The notes below the pieces were generated by a model. It did not search any database. It had not been told where the DNA came from and was given only the letters and a program-made list of their open reading frames with translations. Shown piece by piece: positions 182 to 25,544 of a DNA stretch of 43,615 nt. The translations under genes were made by a program, and so were the position numbers. Every line of letters begins with the position of its first letter. The stretch's first letter is position 1. This DNA comes from Candidatus Cloacimonadota bacterium (lineage in GTDB: Bacteria; Cloacimonadota; Cloacimonadia; Cloacimonadales; JAQVBK01), in the NCBI GenBank assembly GCA_028690365.1, contig JAQVBK010000001.1:1-43615 (forward strand), in the 5' to 3' direction.

Positions 182-257
182 AGGACAGTAGTTCAATTGG
201 TAGAGCACTGGTCTCCAAAACCAGGGGTTGCGGGTTCGATTCCTGCCTGTCCTGCCA
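182..257 (+). tRNA. trnW: tRNA-Trp (anticodon CCA)
   Basis: A 76-nt cloverleaf folds by hand. The acceptor is AGGACAG/CTGTCCT and the D stem is GTTC/GAGC. The anticodon stem CTGGT/ACCAG carries the loop CTCCAAA. The T stem is GCGGG/CCTGC with a TTCGATT loop. The discriminator is G and the CCA end is encoded. Its position between rpmG and secE is classical. Confidence 0.93.
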
Positions 258-17610: not shown

Positions 17611-17624
17611 TCAATGAGGTGAAA

Positions 17625-18725
17625 ATGAAGATACATTTAATAGTCGGAGCCAGACCAAATTTCATGAAAATAGCTCCTCTTTATAAGGAATTAGCTAAGT
17701 ATTCTGATATTTTTCAAGTTAAACTTATTCATACGGGTCAGCATTATGATGAGAGAATGAGCAAATTCTTTTTCGATGAATTACAGTTACCTGTGCCGGA
17801 TAAATACCTAGAGGTTGGTTCAGCATCTCATGGAGTACAAACAGCCAGAATTATGGAAAGATACGAGGAAGTTCTTTTTGAAGAAAAACCTGATCTGGTT
17901 GTAGTTGCCGGAGATGTTAACAGCACAATGGCTTGTGCTTTGGATGCTGTGAAAATGCATATTCCGGTAGCACATCTCGAAGCCGGACTGAGAAGTTTTG
18001 ACATGAGTATGCCTGAAGAAATTAACAGAATAGTTACCGACTCAATATCAGATTATCTGCTTACTCCATCACCGGATGGTGACGAAAATCTTATCAAAGA
18101 AGGAATTACCAAAGAGAAAATTTTTAGAGTCGGGAATATTATGATAGATTCGTTAATTCAATATCTCGATAAATCAGAATCATCTACTATTCATACTGAA
18201 CTCAATCTTCAAAAGGGGAAATATTGTCTGATAACTCTCCATCGTCCTTCCAATGTCGATCATAAGGAAAATTTGGCTACAATTTTAGGATCATTCAAAG
18301 AGATAGCTAAGGAGACGGTTCTTGTCTTCCCCATGCATCCCCGCACACTCAAGAACATTGAAAAAATGGGTCTAAAGAATGTTCTGGAATCTATTCTCCA
18401 ACTTAGGATTGTTCCACCGGTCGGATACTATGATTTCATTCATCTGCAACGCTATGCTAAATTTATTGTGACCGATTCCGGTGGCATACAGGAAGAAAGT
18501 ACCTTTATGAATGTTCCTTGTTTGACCTTAAGGGACAATACAGAAAGACCGATAACTGTTACACAGGGTAGTAACATTCTGGTGAAATTGAATAAGTCTG
18601 AAATTATTCAGGAAGTGGAAAAAATCCTGCAGGGTAATATCAAAAAAGCGCAAATACCTGATCTGTGGGATGGAAAAACAGCCGAAAGAATTGTGGAAAT
18701 ATTTATGAAGATGGAGAAAAATTGA
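17625..18725 (+). CDS. wecB: UDP-N-acetylglucosamine 2-epimerase (non-hydrolysing)
   Basis: It contains MKIHLIVGARPNFMKIAPL, HTGQHYD, ITLHRPSNVD and TDSGGIQEE. I prefer ATG 17625 (preceded by TGAGGTG) over the in-frame GTG at 17619 given in the ORF track. Confidence 0.9.
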   Translation: MKIHLIVGARPNFMKIAPLYKELAKYSDIFQVKLIHTGQHYDERMSKFFFDELQLPVPDKYLEVGSASHGVQTARIMERYEEVLFEEKPDLVVVAGDVNSTMACALDAVKMHIPVAHLEAGLRSFDMSMPEEINRIVTDSISDYLLTPSPDGDENLIKEGITKEKIFRVGNIMIDSLIQYLDKSESSTIHTELNLQKGKYCLITLHRPSNVDHKENLATILGSFKEIAKETVLVFPMHPRTLKNIEKMGLKNVLESILQLRIVPPVGYYDFIHLQRYAKFIVTDSGGIQEESTFMNVPCLTLRDNTERPITVTQGSNILVKLNKSEIIQEVEKILQGNIKKAQIPDLWDGKTAERIVEIFMKMEKN

Positions 18726-18981
18726 TTCTGGGATTAATCAAGAAAGAATGCTCTCTTTTAGAAAATGGAATCAGAGGCAACAAGATGATATCTGATAAAC
18801 TAGTTGAGAAAACATTCATCAATAAACTGAAGGTTTTGAAATTTTGCATTTAGGGTAACGAAAAGAATGAAGAATAAGGAGGGATAAAAACTCTTTCGTA
18901 AACACGGTTTTTAAAGATAATGGGAAGTGGGGAAAAGTGTGTGATTAGAATTCATCATTAAGAGGAATTTATTGTGGAGGA

Positions 18982-21900
18982 ATGTTCATGAAGGATGGAA
19001 ATATTGAGAAGATAAAAGAGAAAATCCATAAGAATGAAATGTCTGTTCTCGTAGGAACAGGATTTTCCAAAAATGCTAATCCTAAAATTCCACTTTGGGA
19101 TGAACTGCTGATAGATATGGCTAAAGAATTATATGAACCAGAGTTCTCTGAATGGAAAATAAAAGCGGAGACTAACAACGCTTATGATTTTCTAAAACTT
19201 AAACTCCGAGAAGTTGACTACTTAGAAATTGTTGAAAAATATATCAAATTCAAAGGAATGCGGGAATCTCTTACCTTTTATATTGAGAATAAACTCTGCC
19301 CATTAGATAAAGACCCTGGAAATGATTTAGACGTTCATAAGAAATTAGTGGAGTGCAATTGGAACAACATTTATACTACAAATTATGACACTCTCTTGGA
19401 ACAAGCAGCAAATAGTTCAGGGAAAAAAGACTATCATACGATAATTCATTCGAAAGCCCTTTCTATTGGACCTCAACACAGGATAATCAAGCTCCATGGA
19501 AGCTTAAGGGAATCCGATTGTGACACATTCGGATTCGATAATGACCAAAGTGCCCATTATGTTATCTCTAAATCTGATTATGAAACATATACAAAAAAGC
19601 ACTCTGCTTTTACCCATTTAATGAGAATTGCGTTATTACAAGAATCATTCTGCCTCATTGGTTTTTCCGGAAGCGATCCTAACTTCTTGGCTTGGATTGA
19701 GTGGGTTCGAGATATTTTAAAAGATTCAAAAGATAAAAAAGATAAAAAAGTATATTTTATTGATGTAAATCCTGAAGAGTGTTCAAAAGAAAGAAAATTG
19801 TTCTTTAGCAATCATCAAATTGAATATATTTCACTCAAAAACATTTTTGGAGAACTATCTCGAAAAGAATTGATTAATGAATTCTTGGACTCAATTAGAG
19901 TTGCAAATATCGAAAAGAATGAGAAACAAAAAAATGAATATGTTTCACTCAAAAGCATCTTTGGGGAATCATCCCAAAAAGAATTGTCTAGTAATTTCTT
20001 GGATTCAACTATAGTAACAAATATTGAAGAGAATGAAATGCAAACTATTCAATTACCATCAAAAAATTATTTTAGTCTTTGGCAAGAGCTTAAGAAACAG
20101 CATTTATTCAATAATCCCCTTTTCGAGATTTATAAGAAAATTGAGGACGAAAATAGATATTATAAAATCCCAAACTATTCAGTTTATTCTTCCGCAGAAA
20201 GCTTAATCCGAGAAAAAAGGCAAAATTTAATCAACGGCATCAATGATTCCAAAATTGATAATATCGAAGTTTTAGGCATTATTGCAATGCTTCAAAGAAA
20301 CAGCTATTACAATTTATCAGCGATGTTCGCCGCTGAAGAAATAGAAAAAACAGAGAATGTTTTTTCCAAGATTGATATTAAACAACTAAACGAAAATCAG
20401 TTTACTAAATGGCAGAACTTCGCTCTCAGTTTTTTAAGAGATTACCGATACAATTTGAATGAAAAGAAATTCAACAATCTCTTTGAAAAACTAAAGTCAA
20501 CAGAAAACACAGCATCTGACTTTTATGATGATATTTATTTTGAAAAGCTGTTATTTTTAGCAAATAAATTGGATTATACAGAATTGATAAAAGGATTGGA
20601 TAACTGGAAACTAACAGACGAATCATCAGCGTGGGCATACATCAGGAAAGCGTATTTATTTAATCTTATAAGAATTCCCAAGTATCAGGAACAGATAACG
20701 AAGACAGTCAATCAAGCAATAAAGAAAACCAATATTGAACAAGAAAAACTTTGGTTTTATGAAATTCTGTCATTTTATCAATTCTCAGAAAATTTCAGAA
20801 CAGATGAAGTTATAACAGCAAAAATTAAGGATTATAAACATAAAGGTTATTACTCCATTGATGATATAATGAAATCTCTTACAAACAAAAAAGAGAAAAA
20901 AGATATAAAACCATCCGAGGCAAGTAGATACACAATAACTCATTCAATGGGCAATCCTCAAGAAGATTTTCCTTGGGATTCTGTGAGATTTATTGAGTTC
21001 TTGAACTGTTTTGGTATTCCTCTAGTCCCAAATATCAAATTCCCTGTTACTGTGTTTGACAGTAACAAATGGTTTGAGATTGCAGTTGATGTGCTCGAAG
21101 GAATGCCACGAGAAGTTCTTTTTATATCCTTCCAATATTCAGGGAATGATATGTCGGAAAATTTCTTAAGAACAATAATTCAAAGAATAGTCTTTAGTAA
21201 GAAAATAAGCAATGAGTTGAAGTTTGAGATTTTCTCTAAATGCTGCAATTCTTTTTACTATTATTTTAGTGACTTAGGAGTTTATAACTCTACATTCATC
21301 TTTGCAATTTCGGAATTGATTTCATGCTTGAGTTATGAAAAATGGGAGAAATTCTTTTACGAATTGTGGGTACTTCAAACAGATACAAGCAAGGTTATTA
21401 ATAAAAAGTTTTATTCTTCTGTCTGGGGTTTAAGTAATGTTATCCCTAAATTTTTACCTTATATTGAAGATAATGTACTGCTCAATGAAATGGTTGTAAC
21501 TTTATTTGAATTCGACTTTTATGTTGATGGAGATGACCAAGAAAATACTGCTCTTAAATACCTCGAGAAAATTCTTTTATATAATCCATTTTTTTATGCA
21601 ATCCCTTCATGTAAAGAAAAAATCAAAGGTTATGTCCAATCTCTTTTAAACAAGGAGACTTTGTCTGAAAAAGAGTTGATTAAAATCAAATATTATAGGA
21701 GTAAAATTAGCAAGAAATCAAATAGATTAATTAGAAAGAAGCTTAATTCTATTGACCTATCCAAAGAACTTATTTTCCGCTGGCAAATACTACTGGAGCT
21801 AACAGATTCAGATGTCGATATGGATTACAAACTTCGTGAATACCTTGTACATAATCCAAACATTATTTTTTCAACCGGAATTAATAATAGTGGAAGAAGT

Positions 21901-22629
21901 GGCGGAGGGTGGTATTTTAAAGTATCTGATACTTTAAAAACAAATGAGGAGACAGATTATTTCTTAGATTGGTCAAGAGAACAAATCATTTATATCTTTA
22001 ACAAATTAAAAACATCTCTTAAGCAACTTCAGGACTATAAAGCAAAACATCAGGGAATATTTTTTTCTTTTAATGATGAGGCTGTTCTATATGATATGAG
22101 AAAATTCCTATGTGTCAATAAAACTGAACTTAAAAAAAATGATGATTTTGAGAGGTTTTTAAAAGATGTTGAAGAAATGTACTTTGCTGAAATAGGTACT
22201 GACAGCATCATTCAAGGATTGCTGTCTGATGATGAGAATCAACTACATTGGTCTGTTGTTTCTTTAATAGAAGAAATGAAAAATTATCCTGAGAAAGAAG
22301 ATGATATACCCTGGCTCGCTTTATTGATGAAAATAATCAGAAAGGACGCAGTCAAGTTGGAGTTAGCTATTGAATACTTCTCCTTTATATTAACTGACAT
22401 TATCAAGAATCAGGATTGGGTAAAAAAATATACCCCGTTTTATGTAGAAATTCTGCGAAATTACTATGAAAATATTCCGGCTGAACTTGATAGAATCTTT
22501 GTAGAATTTTTCTTGATTAAGGTAGCTAAAGTTTTAAAGGATTGGAAAATTGAGGATCAAATTATTGATGAATGGCTTGAAATAAAAGAGAATTCAGAAT
22601 TTTTGAAGATCAGAAATATGACTTTATAA
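18982..22629 (+). CDS. Large defence-type SIR2 (SIR2_2-like) NADase-domain protein with a long unassigned helical C-terminal region (DSR2-like architecture)
   Basis: The N-terminal ~280 aa carry the defence-SIR2 motif set in order. These are VLVGTGFSK..IPLWDELL (nt ~19045), NIYTTNYDTLLEQA (TTNYD at 19375-19389), IIKLHGSL (19489-19503) and LIGFSGSDPNFLAWI (~19660). The remaining ~860 aa have no motif I can recognise and no Walker A. The true start may be ATG 18988, which lies 7 nt after GGAGG, rather than 18982. Confidence 0.8.
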   Translation: MFMKDGNIEKIKEKIHKNEMSVLVGTGFSKNANPKIPLWDELLIDMAKELYEPEFSEWKIKAETNNAYDFLKLKLREVDYLEIVEKYIKFKGMRESLTFYIENKLCPLDKDPGNDLDVHKKLVECNWNNIYTTNYDTLLEQAANSSGKKDYHTIIHSKALSIGPQHRIIKLHGSLRESDCDTFGFDNDQSAHYVISKSDYETYTKKHSAFTHLMRIALLQESFCLIGFSGSDPNFLAWIEWVRDILKDSKDKKDKKVYFIDVNPEECSKERKLFFSNHQIEYISLKNIFGELSRKELINEFLDSIRVANIEKNEKQKNEYVSLKSIFGESSQKELSSNFLDSTIVTNIEENEMQTIQLPSKNYFSLWQELKKQHLFNNPLFEIYKKIEDENRYYKIPNYSVYSSAESLIREKRQNLINGINDSKIDNIEVLGIIAMLQRNSYYNLSAMFAAEEIEKTENVFSKIDIKQLNENQFTKWQNFALSFLRDYRYNLNEKKFNNLFEKLKSTENTASDFYDDIYFEKLLFLANKLDYTELIKGLDNWKLTDESSAWAYIRKAYLFNLIRIPKYQEQITKTVNQAIKKTNIEQEKLWFYEILSFYQFSENFRTDEVITAKIKDYKHKGYYSIDDIMKSLTNKKEKKDIKPSEASRYTITHSMGNPQEDFPWDSVRFIEFLNCFGIPLVPNIKFPVTVFDSNKWFEIAVDVLEGMPREVLFISFQYSGNDMSENFLRTIIQRIVFSKKISNELKFEIFSKCCNSFYYYFSDLGVYNSTFIFAISELISCLSYEKWEKFFYELWVLQTDTSKVINKKFYSSVWGLSNVIPKFLPYIEDNVLLNEMVVTLFEFDFYVDGDDQENTALKYLEKILLYNPFFYAIPSCKEKIKGYVQSLLNKETLSEKELIKIKYYRSKISKKSNRLIRKKLNSIDLSKELIFRWQILLELTDSDVDMDYKLREYLVHNPNIIFSTGINNSGRSGGGWYFKVSDTLKTNEETDYFLDWSREQIIYIFNKLKTSLKQLQDYKAKHQGIFFSFNDEAVLYDMRKFLCVNKTELKKNDDFERFLKDVEEMYFAEIGTDSIIQGLLSDDENQLHWSVVSLIEEMKNYPEKEDDIPWLALLMKIIRKDAVKLELAIEYFSFILTDIIKNQDWVKKYTPFYVEILRNYYENIPAELDRIFVEFFLIKVAKVLKDWKIEDQIIDEWLEIKENSEFLKIRNMTL
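19822..20049 (+). repeat. In-frame tandem duplication (2 x 114 nt = 2 x 38 aa) inside the SIR2-protein gene
   Basis: Copy 1 starts GAATATATTTCACTCAAAAACATTTTTGG at 19822. Copy 2 starts GAATATGTTTCACTCAAAAGCATCTTTGG at 19936. The protein copies are EYISLKNIFGELSRKELINEFLDSIRVANIEKNEKQKN and EYVSLKSIFGESSQKELSSNFLDSTIVTNIEENEMQTI. By eye about three quarters of the nucleotides are identical. Confidence 0.9.
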
Positions 22630-22697
22630 TTTATTATGAAGATATTGAAGCTTATGAAAAAGAATAAATATAGTTATTACAGAGAGATTTTATACTA

Positions 22698-23706
22698 ATG
22701 AGTAAAGAAATATCTACACAAAAAGAATTTAATGAACTACTTAAGTTGATTCAGCAGACAAGGCAAAAGACCTATGCTCAAATCAATTCAACACTAATTG
22801 AGCTCTACTGGAAAATAGGTAAACATATCAGCAAAAAAGTAAATTCAGCCGCTTGGGGGAAAAGCATAGTTAGTGAATTGGCAAAATATATTGCCAGTAA
22901 TGATCCTGAGATAAAAGGCTTTAGCGATAAAAATCTCTGGCGAATGAAACAATTTTATGAAGCATATAAAGACACTCCAAAACTCTCAACACTGTTGAGA
23001 GAATTACCTTGGTCTCATAACTTGGCTATTTTTTCACGATGTAAAACAGATGAAGAACGAGAATTTTATCTGACTCTTACCATTCAAGAAAAGTATAGTT
23101 TCCGCGAACTTGATAGGCAGATTTCAACCAGTTTTTTTGAGCGAACAATTTCAGATGACAAGAAACTCTCAACAGCGTTGAGAGAATTGCAGCCGAATAT
23201 CGACAGGACTTTTAAAGATAGCTATGTTCTGGAATTATTAGGTTTATCGGAGAGTCATAGCGAAAGTGATCTAAAAATGTCACTGATTCACCACATGAAG
23301 GCATTTATTCTTGAACTGGGTAAAGATTTCATTTTTGTTGGAGAAGAATATCGATTACAGGTTGGAAATCAGGATTTCTTTATTGATCTACTGTTCTTTC
23401 ATCGAGGTCTTTGTGCTCTGGTTGCTTTTGAACTAAAAACTGGGAAATTCAATAGAACATTTGGGTCAAATCAATTTCTATTTAGAGGCATTGGATAGAG
23501 ATGTGAAAAAACCGCATGAAAATCCGAGTATCGGCATTTTACTATGTCGAGATAAAGATGAAGAGGTTGTGGAATATGCTCTTTCACGCAATCTTTCTCC
23601 TGCTCTGATTGCTGAATACCAACTGCAATTACCAGATAAAAAATTGATTAAAGAGAAACTACATGAGATATTCGTCAGCGAAACGAGTGGAAAAAACAAA
23701 AAATGA
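22698..23706 (+). pseudogene. YhcG/DUF1016-family PD-(D/E)XK nuclease, interrupted by a single frameshift
   Basis: ORF 22698-23498 has the YhcG N-terminal signature (LIELYWKIGKHI...WGKSIVSELAKYI...GFSDKNLWRMKQFYEAY...LPWSHNLAI...EREFYL) and the nuclease core (FFIDLLFF...VAFELKTGKF). The family C-terminus (LGQINFYLEALDRDVKKPHENPSIGILLC...) continues in the +1 frame (ORF 23461-23706). The frame switch must lie within 23437-23460. Confidence 0.8.
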
Positions 23707-23783
23707 GTCACAAATTTTATTTATCTTATTGCAATAAATAGGAAATGTGATAAAGACTTAATATTTATGACAGGGAGATACAA

Positions 23784-25544
23784 ATGTCAGAAAACACAAA
23801 AAGCGTTAATCTGGTATTCATATTAGTCATCTTAATGCTCAATGTAAATTTATTTGGAAGCAAAGTTGTAGCAATTCTACCTTTTACTTCAGTTTTCGAA
23901 AAAATTGCTCAAGAACAAAAAGATGCAATTAATTTAGCGCTGGGAAACTATGATAACGAAATTGAAATTATCTATAAAGACAGTAAAGGAACTGCTGAAG
24001 GTGCAATAACCGCTCTAGATGAATTCATAAAAAGCAATGGCAATCCAGAAATTGTCATTTCCTGTGCAAGTTGGGTAGCAACAGCCCTGAATCCCGTAAC
24101 CGCTGAAAGAGGGTTGTTTCATCTGGCAATCGGAAGTGCCTCGATAGAGAGGGAAATAAAAAATCATACCATCAGAATGACTGTTGATGAACAGGTGGAA
24201 GAAGAACTCTTGTCTTATTATTTATTGCAATTTAATAAGATAGCCGTTTTCTATATGAACAATGAACTTGGGACAACTTGGAACAGAGTTCTTAGAAAAA
24301 GACTAAGAGAGAAAATTAACATCAGCATTTCTTATGATCCTGAAATGAAAGATTTTGATAATGAAATCAGTCAAATTAAAAAAGCTGAACCAGAAGCTAT
24401 TGTCCTGATAAGCTCCAGTAATGCAGCTAAAATTTCTGAACTCATTCGAAAGGCTGGAATTAATGCCCAGCTTGTCGGAACCAGACCAATTGAACGTCCC
24501 GAAATACTTACTGCCAGTAAATATACAAATGGACTGATTTTTACATCTCCATCTTTTGATTCTGAAAATGAAATGCTAAAACTTTTCAAAGAAAAATACA
24601 ACTATAAGCCTACCTTCTTTGGATTAGAAGCTTACGATACAACGGTTATGTTGATTACGGCTTTTAAAGAGAATTCCTCAGTGAAAGATTTTTACAACTG
24701 GTATATAGATCGAAATTTTATTGGAGCATTAGGCAGCATCAAAATTAAACAGAACGGTGATGCAAATTATCCTTATATGTTTAAAGAAGTTAAAGACGGG
24801 AAATTCACCATTGCAGAATTTCAATACGCTTTGATTTTAGAACAAACGAGACAAGAAATTGACTCAATTTTTGACAAGATGGGGTTTGATTTACAACAGG
24901 CTGCCAATGAATTGTCCTCTGGAATCACAGGAAAAAAGGCAGATATGACTATCAGGAGACTTCACGAAAAAAATCCCCTCAGTTATGATGTTGTCACAAT
25001 TGATCCTAAGGGAGTGATTCGCAATGTCTATCCTGATCATAAAGAAATCGTTAACAAAGATATTTCTGACCAGGAACAAGTCATCAGAATGATGGAATTA
25101 AACAAACCTGTCGTCAGCAAGGCCTTCAAAGCAGTTGAGGGTTTTGTCGGATTTGATTATGAATATCCAATTTTTAATGAAAAAAATGAGTATATTGGAG
25201 CAGTTAGTATTCTGACGAAGCCAAGTTTCTTTGCTGAGATAATCAATAGTAAAATTGCCAGTTTTCCGGTTGAAATATGCGTTATGCAGACAGACGGAGT
25301 TATTGTTTATGATATCAATGAAGAAGAAATCGGATTAAATCTTTTCTCTTCAGAGTCATATGATAATTATCCAACCTTGAGACAATTGGGAAGAAAAATG
25401 TCAATATTTCCTCAGGGATCCGGAGATTATGAATATTTAGATAAAAATATGGATAAAGTTGTGGAGAAAGAGCTGATTTGGACGAATCTTCACGTACATG
25501 GAACAGAGTTTCGAATAGCTTTGTTTACCGAAAAAAAAGACTAA
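23784..25544 (+). CDS. Secreted or membrane-anchored type-1 periplasmic binding protein (LivK/Peripla_BP_6-like) fused to a C-terminal Cache-like sensory domain
   Basis: The N-terminus has a hydrophobic signal/anchor (VNLVFILVILMLNVNLFG). The segment VVAILPFTS...QKDAINLAL...IEIIYKDSKGTAEGAITALDEF is typical of the Leu/Ile/Val-binding fold. The last ~230 aa resemble an extracytoplasmic Cache/PAS-like fold. No transmitter domain is present. Confidence 0.6.
   Translation: MSENTKSVNLVFILVILMLNVNLFGSKVVAILPFTSVFEKIAQEQKDAINLALGNYDNEIEIIYKDSKGTAEGAITALDEFIKSNGNPEIVISCASWVATALNPVTAERGLFHLAIGSASIEREIKNHTIRMTVDEQVEEELLSYYLLQFNKIAVFYMNNELGTTWNRVLRKRLREKINISISYDPEMKDFDNEISQIKKAEPEAIVLISSSNAAKISELIRKAGINAQLVGTRPIERPEILTASKYTNGLIFTSPSFDSENEMLKLFKEKYNYKPTFFGLEAYDTTVMLITAFKENSSVKDFYNWYIDRNFIGALGSIKIKQNGDANYPYMFKEVKDGKFTIAEFQYALILEQTRQEIDSIFDKMGFDLQQAANELSSGITGKKADMTIRRLHEKNPLSYDVVTIDPKGVIRNVYPDHKEIVNKDISDQEQVIRMMELNKPVVSKAFKAVEGFVGFDYEYPIFNEKNEYIGAVSILTKPSFFAEIINSKIASFPVEICVMQTDGVIVYDINEEEIGLNLFSSESYDNYPTLRQLGRKMSIFPQGSGDYEYLDKNMDKVVEKELIWTNLHVHGTEFRIALFTEKKD

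Follow-up and report, generated by a model that had tools for sequence, protein, structure and literature searches.

Our analysis suggests that the 5-kb stretch between wecB and a PBP/Cache sensor gene, in a 43,615-nt window of a Candidatus Cloacimonadota contig, probably comprises two neighbouring but unrelated anti-phage modules, each a single gene, which do not cooperate: the upstream gene encodes a full-length, very divergent member of the DSR2 superfamily, and the downstream gene is a pseudogene of the YhcG/DUF1016 nuclease family. The initial annotation had put forward such a mini-island of two independent defence genes, and this reading stood: the SIR2 gene belongs to a stand-alone DSR2-type family with no conserved partner, the YhcG gene matches a candidate single-gene system (PADLOC PDC-S02, E 5.6e-95), and the relatives and contexts of the two are discordant. 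Because the closest SIR2 relative lies among housekeeping genes and the closest YhcG relatives lie in restriction-modification operons, the two genes have separate histories; we ascribe their adjacency to their common membership in a floating stock of defence-island genes.

What is new at this locus is a very divergent but well-modelled branch of the DSR2 superfamily, which spans about 126 clusters (50% identity), is found chiefly in Bacteroidota, Cloacimonadota and Spirochaetes (DSR2 itself, by contrast, is from Bacillota), goes unnamed under the NCBIfam equivalog cut-off, and is covered by the PADLOC Dsr2 model in its SIR2 domain only. The sensor region of this branch is distinct, and a different phage protein may be recognised. 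The defence role of the SIR2-solenoid subfamily is a putative one. For annotation, the locus illustrates that adjacent defence-type genes do not amount to one system without a co-occurrence test; apart from the divergent branch and this lesson, it is ordinary.

Layout and boundaries of the locus

The gene at the left boundary, wecB, is the final gene of a conserved rpoC...fusA-prmC-murA-wecB run, in which fusA, a STAS gene, a response regulator gene, prmC and murA precede it; the synteny upstream of wecB is common to relatives (loci L090-L095). At the right boundary lies a gene for a PBP and Cache-like sensor, whose homologues in relatives have other neighbours. The layout described at the outset was confirmed in full (Table 1): wecB ends where the initial annotation had placed its end, a 256-nt non-coding stretch precedes the SIR2 gene, and after a 68-nt gap there follows a same-strand gene with DUF1016_N and YhcG_C domains. 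The 256-nt spacer contains no promoter-like site that we could find and has no Rfam match, a 62-aa ORF overlapping it has no Pfam match, and it bears no similarity to the region 5' of P0002, the 69%-identical SIR2 homologue.

Table 1. Features of the SIR2/YhcG locus and its two boundary genes (window coordinates)
Feature	Coordinates	Strand	Remarks
wecB (UDP-GlcNAc 2-epimerase)	17619..18725	+	PF02350, E 2.6e-110; left boundary
Intergenic spacer, 256 nt, 5' of SIR2 gene	18726..18981	.	
SIR2 gene, intact, DSR2-like	18982..22629	+	1215 aa; PF13289
SIR2 NADase domain, aa 1-276	18982..19809	+	GxGxS (S29), N134, D136, H172
Tandem duplication, in-frame, 114 nt (aa 277-314 / 315-352)	19810..20037	+	Linker 3' of SIR2 domain
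All-alpha HEAT-like solenoid, 863 residues (353-1215)	20038..22626	+	AF2 model, Foldseek
YhcG/DUF1016 PD-(D/E)XK nuclease pseudogene	22698..23706	+	DUF1016_N + YhcG_C; PADLOC PDC-S02
PBP + Cache-like sensor gene	23784..25544	+	PF13458, PF22309; right boundary

Architecture of the SIR2 protein

The likelier start of the SIR2 gene is the ATG at 18988, located 8 nt past a GGAGG, which gives a protein of 1213 aa. The SIR2_2 domain (PF13289) was matched at aa 129-283 (E 1e-19), and residues N134, D136 and H172 are invariant in 66/66 family members; they are offset by one residue from the catalytic residues N133, D135 and H171 of DSR2 (PMC11850899; bioRxiv 10.1101/2021.12.14.472415). The two copies of the 114-nt duplication in the linker are 78-80% identical; P0002 lacks the second one, and the duplicated region has low pLDDT in the AF2 model. 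The pLDDT is 84.7 for the AF2 model that includes the SIR2 domain and 89.5 for that of the solenoid (pTM 0.89). With the solenoid alone, Foldseek returned karyopherin/SF3B1-type solenoids and HEAT/ARM proteins as the best analogues. The solenoid region is common to 126 clusters, in which it is nearly always C-terminal to a SIR2 domain, and presumably serves as the sensor and oligomerisation part. The dN/dS of the SIR2 gene against P0002 is 0.19, which indicates that the gene is under purifying selection.

Kinship with DSR2 and other SIR2 systems

The SIR2 protein resembles DSR2 (B. subtilis 29R; PDB 8WY8/8WKN) in its whole layout: both have an N-terminal SIR2 NADase, a flexible linker, and a long all-alpha MID/HEAT-like region; the C-terminal domain of DSR2 was described as HEAT-like (PMC11850899). 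Both are encoded as single genes, and the 1215 aa of the window protein equal the length of the NCBIfam Dsr2 profile. The best 50 Foldseek PDB matches of the AF2 model with pLDDT 84.7 are all B. subtilis DSR2 chains, and the SIR2 domain superposes on that of DSR2 with a TM of 0.75 and an rmsd of about 4 A. By hhalign, the family profile aligned with an NCBI-annotated Dsr2 from a C. tyrobutyricum plasmid at a probability of 100% over 1004 columns, and the non-SIR2 part of the latter (aa 300-1246) still aligned at 97.5% (E 6.3e-12, 629 columns).

The two proteins are nevertheless far apart: the identity to B. subtilis DSR2 is just 13-14% in the Foldseek alignments; PDB sequence searches with the single protein and with the family profile did not find the DSR2 chains, and DSR2 is reached by fold and profile-profile comparison only; and B. 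subtilis DSR2 is absent among the best 50 Foldseek matches listed for the solenoid alone. The PADLOC Dsr2 model matched the protein at E 3.8e-43 with an alignment that covers the SIR2 part only (positions 13-298 of 1222), and the NCBIfam Dsr2 model (NF041819) scored 159.5 bits (E 1.1e-46; best stretch aa 8-338 only), below its equivalog cut-off of 1400 bits. Given this low score, the trigger and oligomeric state of the protein may differ from those of DSR2.

We propose the following mode of action by analogy with B. subtilis DSR2. The SIR2 NADase with its catalytic residues N134, D136 and H172 is joined through a flexible linker to a HEAT-like alpha-solenoid of 860 residues; the solenoid would restrain the NADase until a phage structural protein binds, whereupon the NADase would break down the NAD+ of the cell by hydrolysis and so end the infection abortively. 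We infer both the NAD+ depletion and the phage trigger from this analogy. B. subtilis DSR2 recognises a phage tail tube protein (SPR-type), and DSR2 also forms a tetramer. The failure of sequence searches to reach DSR2, the low score, the PADLOC match to the SIR2 part only and the miss with the solenoid suggest that the trigger of the window protein may not be such a protein.

By sequence, the closest solved SIR2 domain is that of ThsA from the Thoeris system (S. equi, PDB 7UXT), which also comes nearest in structure to the SIR2 domain of DSR2 (PMC11850899). Unlike ThsA, the window protein has neither a SLOG/STALD sensor domain nor a ThsB TIR partner, and its C-terminal part is a solenoid. As in SIR2-HerA and in the SIR2/pAgo system SPARSA, a SIR2 NADase effector adjoins a gene for a nucleic-acid-acting protein. 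In SIR2-HerA and SPARSA the partner gene is conserved and obligatory, whereas YhcG accompanies the SIR2 gene at ~2% of the loci of the family, and the window copy is defective. Neither in the window nor among the family neighbours did we find a HerA, pAgo or ThsB partner.

A frameshifted YhcG gene away from its usual home

The YhcG gene is a pseudogene. A 2-nt deletion at 23452/23453, placed by DNA alignment with the homologues at loci L170 and L171 (77-81% identical), splits it into ORFs of 266 aa and 81 aa; DUF1016_N is matched at E 6.6e-45, YhcG_C is divided between the two ORFs, and the window contains no intact YhcG ORF of ~340 aa. An independent Logan assembly, with 100% identity across 8235 nt, shows this break as well. 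The PD-(D/E)XK domain of YhcG/DUF1016 (COG4804) carries an E-D-ExK motif (PMC1189080), which here (GEEY...FIDLLFF...FELK) lies upstream of the break. As the 266-aa product keeps this motif, the truncated protein may have residual activity. A search of the PDB with YhcG gave no matches.

The YhcG lineage is highly conserved and highly mobile, with type I restriction-modification operons as its usual home, and the 2-nt deletion that probably inactivated the window copy is a recent one. The clusters with 70-81% identity to this copy number in the hundreds. The domain content of the window copy (DUF1016_N and YhcG_C) and its 77-81% identity join it to the copies in type I restriction-modification operons; unlike them, it is frameshifted and stranded without restriction-modification genes. 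The two closest intact copies (L170 and L171) lie in YhcG-hsdS-AAA_13-hsdM runs, immediately preceded by hsdR in L171, and neither run has a SIR2 gene. DUF1016 together with RhuM has been reported as enriched beside restriction-modification specificity genes (PMC9881135).

Such contexts raise the possibility that the pair is all that erosion has left of a larger defence island centred on a type I restriction-modification system; both genes would have been passengers in its operon, the hsd genes would have been deleted, and YhcG would now be decaying. We consider this unlikely. It would account for the pseudogene and for the missing mobility genes, and passengers of this kind do occur: a member of the SIR2 family sits in a restriction-modification operon at L005 (hsdM-DUF4062-SLFN-hsdS-SIR2-SEC-C-RhuM-hsdR), as YhcG does at L170 and L171. 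On the other hand, no hsd fragments were detected; PADLOC found neither restriction-modification genes nor a convincing second defence system among the 36 other ORFs of the window (0/36 match a restriction-modification model); the three spacers around the pair are short, at 256, 68 and 77 nt; most family members lie outside restriction-modification operons; and the two genes could equally well have been inserted one by one at a junction that varies.

Neighbours of the SIR2 family

The family has at least 524 genome loci. Family members were counted by hmmsearch with the family profile, and neighbour counts refer to 44 independent loci; tblastn with the C-terminal region misses members, for example L018. 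The 81 immediate neighbours at these loci matched 103 Pfam families, the commonest being HATPase_c_4 (6), SLFN_AlbA_2 (5) and N6_N4_Mtase (4), and all-against-all clustering of the neighbours gave no conserved partner. SLFN_AlbA_2 proteins and methyltransferases are both commoner neighbours than YhcG, which is immediately adjacent at one locus and lies within 10 kb at three, with varying order, spacing and strand. The new SIR2+YhcG two-component system suggested at first was thus not borne out by the co-occurrence check (1/44 adjacent, 3/44 <=10 kb), nor by the state of the two genes, one a pseudogene and the other under purifying selection.

In such a system, the sirtuin would sense infection or deplete NAD+ and the nuclease would be a second effector, in parallel with SIR2-HerA and SIR2-pAgo. 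We regard it as very improbable. The arrangement in the window (same strand, 68-nt gap) is suggestive, and it has partial counterparts: in a second lineage (L018, Bacteroidales UBA1217) an intact YhcG gene lies 84 nt upstream, on the same strand, of a full-length SIR2 member, and at L035 the order is YhcG-RhuM/Fic-SIR2, with YhcG two genes upstream. However, the single adjacent case has the gene order opposite to that of the window; the YhcG proteins of L018 and L035 share only 37% and 32% identity with that of the window, compared with 77-81% for those in restriction-modification operons; and the closest YhcG homologues have no SIR2 gene beside them. Conversely, among the closest SIR2 homologues whose surroundings could be read, YhcG was absent on both sides of P0002, P0008, P0009 and P0016 within the fetched DNA and upstream, the one side covered, of P0003 and P0005. 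In addition, selection is maintained on the SIR2 gene of the window but YhcG beside it is frameshifted, and for the DSR2 defence system a single gene suffices (bioRxiv 10.1101/2021.12.14.472415).

The contexts of individual relatives are diverse. P0002 is solitary between an Asp/Glu racemase gene and a transglutaminase gene, and nucleotide similarity to it is confined to the coding sequence and ends with it; P0016 stands alone between dnaX and ybaB-recR; and P0008 lies within a type I restriction-modification operon. Searches of plasmids and phages gave SIR2-domain-level matches only, with no full-length family member.

Against a control of 86 loci around wecB or PBP homologues, none of which has YhcG within 10 kb, the 3/44 of the family (hypergeometric p ~0.04, hand arithmetic) suggest that the SIR2 family and YhcG co-habit more often than random genes. 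One could take YhcG/DUF1016 for a promiscuous add-on nuclease, facultatively paired with the defence systems that it adjoins, be they type I restriction-modification genes (L170, L171) or the DSR2-like family (window, L018, L035), while a Bacteroidota/Cloacimonadota SIR2-solenoid clade would separately sense a trigger other than the tail tube protein. If so, the SIR2-YhcG adjacency in 2-3 lineages would be a facultative functional pairing, not a shared habitat. We think this combined proposal improbable, and prefer two unrelated modules.

Composition, mobility and acquisition

The initial annotation had judged both genes, by eye, to be AT-rich and biased towards Asn, Lys and Ile. This is true of the SIR2 gene, whose GC of 0.307 is the lowest among 38 genes (z = -2.4 relative to flank genes at 0.358 +/- 0.021) and whose N+K+I content is at +1.4 sd; it is not true of the YhcG pieces, which have GC of 0.348 and 0.358, and of which the 266-aa piece has a below-average N+K+I of 0.20. 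At synonymous positions there is no foreign signal: the GC3 of the SIR2 gene (0.291 vs 0.304 +/- 0.026) cannot be told from that of host genes, nor can its codon bias (B = 0.17).

Host-like GC3 and codon usage would also befit a housekeeping NAD-dependent deacylase or regulator with no role in defence, its low GC following from amino-acid composition; the lack of mobility genes and the position of some homologues between housekeeping genes point the same way. We give this reading hardly any credence. The gene is missing from the equivalent position in relatives; the family is patchily distributed across phyla, with a different insertion site each time; methyltransferases, GajA, SLFN_AlbA_2, RhuM, HipA and KAP NTPases are overrepresented around its members; and the protein shows DSR2 homology and a SIR2 domain of the ThsA type.

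The initial annotation was also right that no integrase, transposase or tRNA marks the edges: the window has no integrase or transposase, and its sole tRNA is a tRNA-Trp at 182-257. No direct or inverted repeats bracketing the pair were found. Of the features expected of a mobile genomic island, the pair has neither an integrase or transposase nor a tRNA target, and neither direct repeats at its flanks nor foreign codon usage. Horizontal acquisition of the pair is plausible, with its order and route presumptive, and is weakly testable, given that synteny at the junction breaks in distant relatives anyway. Among the relatives compared we found no true empty site; in the closest ones available, which are distant (wecB ~70% identical), the surroundings of wecB and of the PBP gene contained neither a SIR2 gene nor YhcG. 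In these closest wecB relatives of the metagenome collection, wecB is followed by an AraA-like gene, hisS and nadB, and the closest PBP/Cache homologues (64% and 47% identical) do not adjoin wecB; over the evolutionary distances that the available relatives span, synteny breaks at the wecB-PBP junction. Elsewhere in the window, PADLOC produced one isolated match among the 36 other ORFs, to mad2.

Locus organization and boundaries

The two genes lie between wecB and a PBP/Cache gene, in the layout that the initial annotation had given (see table). Integrase and transposase genes are absent from the window, and the edges of the islet carry neither a mobility gene nor a tRNA, as had also been noted. 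No direct or inverted repeats flanking the pair were found, and Rfam, scanned with a permissive E-value cut-off, gave no credible match. The sequence GGAGG lies 2 nt 5' of the ATG at 18982 but 8 nt 5' of the ATG at 18988; because of this spacing, and because the database version of the protein (P0001) has 1213 aa, 18988 is more likely to be the true start.

Features of the SIR2–YhcG locus, in window positions
Feature	Position	Strand	Details
tRNA-Trp	182-257		single tRNA in the window
wecB	ends 18725	+	PF02350; last of the run fusA, STAS protein, response regulator, prmC, murA
Spacer wecB–SIR2			256 non-coding bases
SIR2 start region	18975-18990		GGAGG and two candidate ATGs
SIR2 ORF	18982-22629	+	1215 aa; SIR2_2 domain aa 129-283
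In-frame tandem duplication	19810-20037		114 nt; aa 277-314 and 315-352
YhcG/DUF1016 gene	22698-23706	+	68 bases 3' of the SIR2 ORF
YhcG palindrome 1	22982-23000		8-bp stem
YhcG palindrome 2	23165-23183		8-bp stem
YhcG 2-nt deletion	between 23452 and 23453
PBP and Cache-like sensor gene	from 23784		next after YhcG

The SIR2 protein as a distant DSR2 homologue

The SIR2 protein belongs to a populous family of SIR2-solenoid proteins of 1120-1340 aa, with more than 1000 database matches and at least 524 matching stretches in a collection of one genome per species; hosts among the matches listed are mainly Bacteroidota, with some Spirochaetes, Delongbacteria and others. Across 66 aligned members N134, D136 and H172 do not vary, and the GxGxS serine (S29) is near-invariant. 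The three invariant positions are offset by one residue from N133, D135 and H171, which together with S51 are the catalytic residues of DSR2 (PMC11850899); N133 and H171 are needed for defence by DSR2 (Garb et al., bioRxiv 10.1101/2021.12.14.472415).

The PADLOC Dsr2 model (E 3.8e-43) and the NCBIfam Dsr2 equivalog model (E 1.1e-46) match essentially the SIR2 part alone, and sequence searches of the PDB with the protein or the family profile matched ThsA-type SIR2 domains and did not find DSR2. Profile comparison reached further: an NCBI-annotated Dsr2 from a Clostridium tyrobutyricum plasmid aligns with the family profile at a probability of 100% over 1004 columns, and its non-SIR2 part (aa 300-1246) at 97.5% (E 6.3e-12, 629 columns). 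The window protein is thus a full-length, very distant homologue of DSR2.

In the AlphaFold2 model of residues 16-1215 (pLDDT 84.7), a disordered linker joins the SIR2 domain to an all-alpha body. The model's best 50 PDB structural matches are all B. subtilis DSR2 chains, with full-length alignments at E about 2e-10, and the SIR2 domain alone superposes on that of DSR2 with a TM of 0.75. When the 863-residue C-terminal part was modelled separately (pLDDT 89.5, pTM 0.89), its best 50 structural matches included generic HEAT/ARM solenoids, e.g. karyopherins and SF3B1, and did not include DSR2; this agrees with the published description of the DSR2 CTD as similar to HEAT proteins alone (PMC11850899) and provides no specific structural link. 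The window protein thus resembles DSR2 in its N-terminal SIR2 domain with N/D/H, its linker and its all-alpha body, but differs in scoring 159.5 bits against the NCBIfam model, far under the 1400-bit equivalog cut-off. It is a divergent member of the known DSR2-type defence sirtuins and forms a new subfamily, not an equivalog.

The homology to DSR2 suggests how it may act: the helical body would hold the SIR2 domain, a predicted NAD+ glycohydrolase, inactive until a phage protein binds to the solenoid; the active sites would then open, and the resulting collapse of NAD+ would abort the infection. Because the sensor of the window protein is so diverged, the trigger need not be the tail tube protein, and another phage trigger is conceivable.

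At 50% identity, 126 clusters have the C-terminal region, and in nearly all cases a SIR2 domain precedes it. A few proteins of 1700-1970 aa (P0279, P0332 and P0339) carry the same solenoid starting at residue 444-1139, with additional N-terminal or C-terminal domains. The two copies of the tandem duplication, which sits just after the SIR2 domain in the linker predicted to be disordered (pLDDT below 50), are 78-80% identical, and the second is missing in P0002, a homologue 69% identical to the window protein. A protein encoded on a human-gut phage contig (H26, PV036459.1 4478-5278) shares 33% identity with the SIR2 domain (aa 21-305) of the window protein.

YhcG is a pseudogene and not a conserved partner

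The window YhcG is a broken pseudogene: its YhcG_C domain is divided over two ORFs of 266 aa and 81 aa by a 2-nt deletion, located by DNA alignment with two homologues 77-81% identical. The deletion lies outside any homopolymer run, and the same break is present in a Logan assembly of SRR22315505 that matches the window at 100% identity across 8235 nt. The lesion is recent, as the protein encoded by each half still shares ~80% identity with intact homologues. The 266-aa fragment retains the E-D-ExK motif, although the product is probably inactive. Intact YhcG is a PD-(D/E)XK nuclease of unproven role (PMC1189080).

The YhcG lineage is very conserved and widespread: clusters at 70-81% identity number in the hundreds and include copies from proteobacterial plasmids and from cyanobacteria. 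The two closest intact copies (loci L170 and L171) lie in YhcG-hsdS-AAA_13-hsdM runs, with hsdR immediately upstream in L171, and the SIR2 gene is absent from both. Independently, DUF1016 and RhuM genes have been reported to be overrepresented next to restriction-modification specificity genes and to lie within type I operons (PMC9881135).

The initial annotation had proposed that SIR2 and YhcG form a new two-gene system or, alternatively, are two independent defence genes. A family-profile search of ORFs in 80 genome loci and metagenome contigs yielded 44 independent loci with a full-length SIR2 family member. YhcG lies within 10 kb of the member in 3 of these: immediately upstream on the same strand with an 84-nt gap (L018), two genes upstream with a RhuM/Fic gene in between (L035), and 6.8 kb away on the opposite strand (L027). 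By contrast, control loci around wecB and PBP homologues, 86 in number and totalling 925 kb, contained none (p about 0.04, by our own hypergeometric arithmetic), and the family and YhcG therefore share habitat somewhat more often than random genes. This co-occurrence does not amount to a partnership. The 81 immediate neighbours of family members match 103 different Pfam families, most commonly HATPase_c_4 (6), SLFN_AlbA_2 (5) and N6_N4 methyltransferases (4), then GajA, HipA, KAP NTPase and restriction endonuclease domains, and YhcG once; all-against-all clustering found no conserved partner. The YhcG proteins of L018 and L035 share only 37% and 32% identity, respectively, with that of the window, and the nearest relatives of SIR2 and YhcG occur in separate contexts. 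With a dN/dS of 0.19 vs P0002, the SIR2 gene is evolving under purifying selection while YhcG is a pseudogene, which also counts against YhcG as its partner. A new two-gene system is not supported; two independent defence genes are.

Both YhcG palindromes have the form CTCTCAAC-nnn-GTTGAGAG, are perfect, and encode KLSTxLREL. The second is kept in the DNA of the L170 and L171 genes (77-81% identical), between which and the window gene synonymous sites are otherwise saturated; the stem of the first is preserved in L170 via a T.G wobble. They may form a conserved hairpin within the gene.

Origin of the pair

The pair had been described as AT-rich and biased towards N, K and I. This holds for the SIR2 gene, whose GC of 0.307 is the lowest of 38 window genes (vs 0.358 +/- 0.021 in the flanking genes; z = -2.4) and whose protein is somewhat elevated in these residues, but not for YhcG, whose pieces do not deviate (GC 0.348 and 0.358; N+K+I 0.20 in the main 266-aa piece). 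As the GC3 of the SIR2 gene (0.291 vs 0.304 +/- 0.026) and its codon bias relative to other genes (B = 0.17, like rpoB, rpoC and fusA) are ordinary, its AT-richness resides in amino-acid composition, with no foreign synonymous signature.

Judging by the names of the closest PBP homologues, the window seems to come from a Cloacimonadota-type bacterium. Relatives available in the collections are distant, the nearest sharing about 70% identity in wecB and about 59% in fusA. These keep the upstream rpoC-to-wecB synteny, followed by an AraA-like gene, hisS and nadB; around the PBP gene, relatives carry different neighbours, some of them defence-like. Among the available relatives, all distant, neither a syntenic SIR2-YhcG pair nor a true empty site for the islet junction was found. 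Horizontal acquisition, as suggested initially, is consistent with the missing synteny, whereas the synonymous composition is host-like; the pair was likely acquired, but long ago or from a donor of similar composition. The pair could possibly be the leftover of a decayed restriction-modification island, but a PADLOC scan of the 36 other window ORFs matched no restriction-modification model. It gave one match, to mad2 (E 5e-22); as mad2 is one component of a multi-gene system and stands alone here, the match probably reflects a generic domain.

The murA-wecB interval, closed in the window, spans 1 kb to 8 kb in the closest relatives (L090-L095; e.g. a 1901-aa ORF in L094), and this neighbourhood looks like a recurrent insertion site. 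The PBP/Cache gene of relatives (L172 12155-15239 and L175 9377-9655) likewise borders genes of accessory or defence-like character, namely an AAA-ATPase_like+PDDEXK_9 protein and DUF5655, together with HsdM_N and integrase fragments.

Other loci of the family

P0002 stands alone between housekeeping genes, and its nucleotide similarity to the window ends exactly at the coding-sequence ends. P0016 is likewise alone, wedged between dnaX and ybaB-recR; P0008 lies within a type I restriction-modification operon and P0009 between two SLFN_AlbA_2 genes. No YhcG was found on the upstream side of P0003 and P0005.

The sole other immediate YhcG-SIR2 adjacency found comes from a Bacteroidales MAG (L018 8720-18395). 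There an intact YhcG, the full-length SIR2-solenoid member and a Sacsin-like protein of 1618 aa that contains an SF1 helicase domain make up a three-gene islet, bordered by sulfatase/rhodanese genes on one side and a T9SS fn3 giant on the other. In a type I restriction-modification operon from Delongbacteria (L005 4831-18472), five passengers separate hsdM from hsdR: DUF4062, SLFN_AlbA_2, the SIR2-solenoid protein, a SEC-C protein and RhuM. P0005 (34% identical; L180 2007-7639) is preceded on the same strand by a shorter SIR2_2 protein (450 aa) and a small Ion_trans_2 protein, which may constitute a different SIR2-based module.
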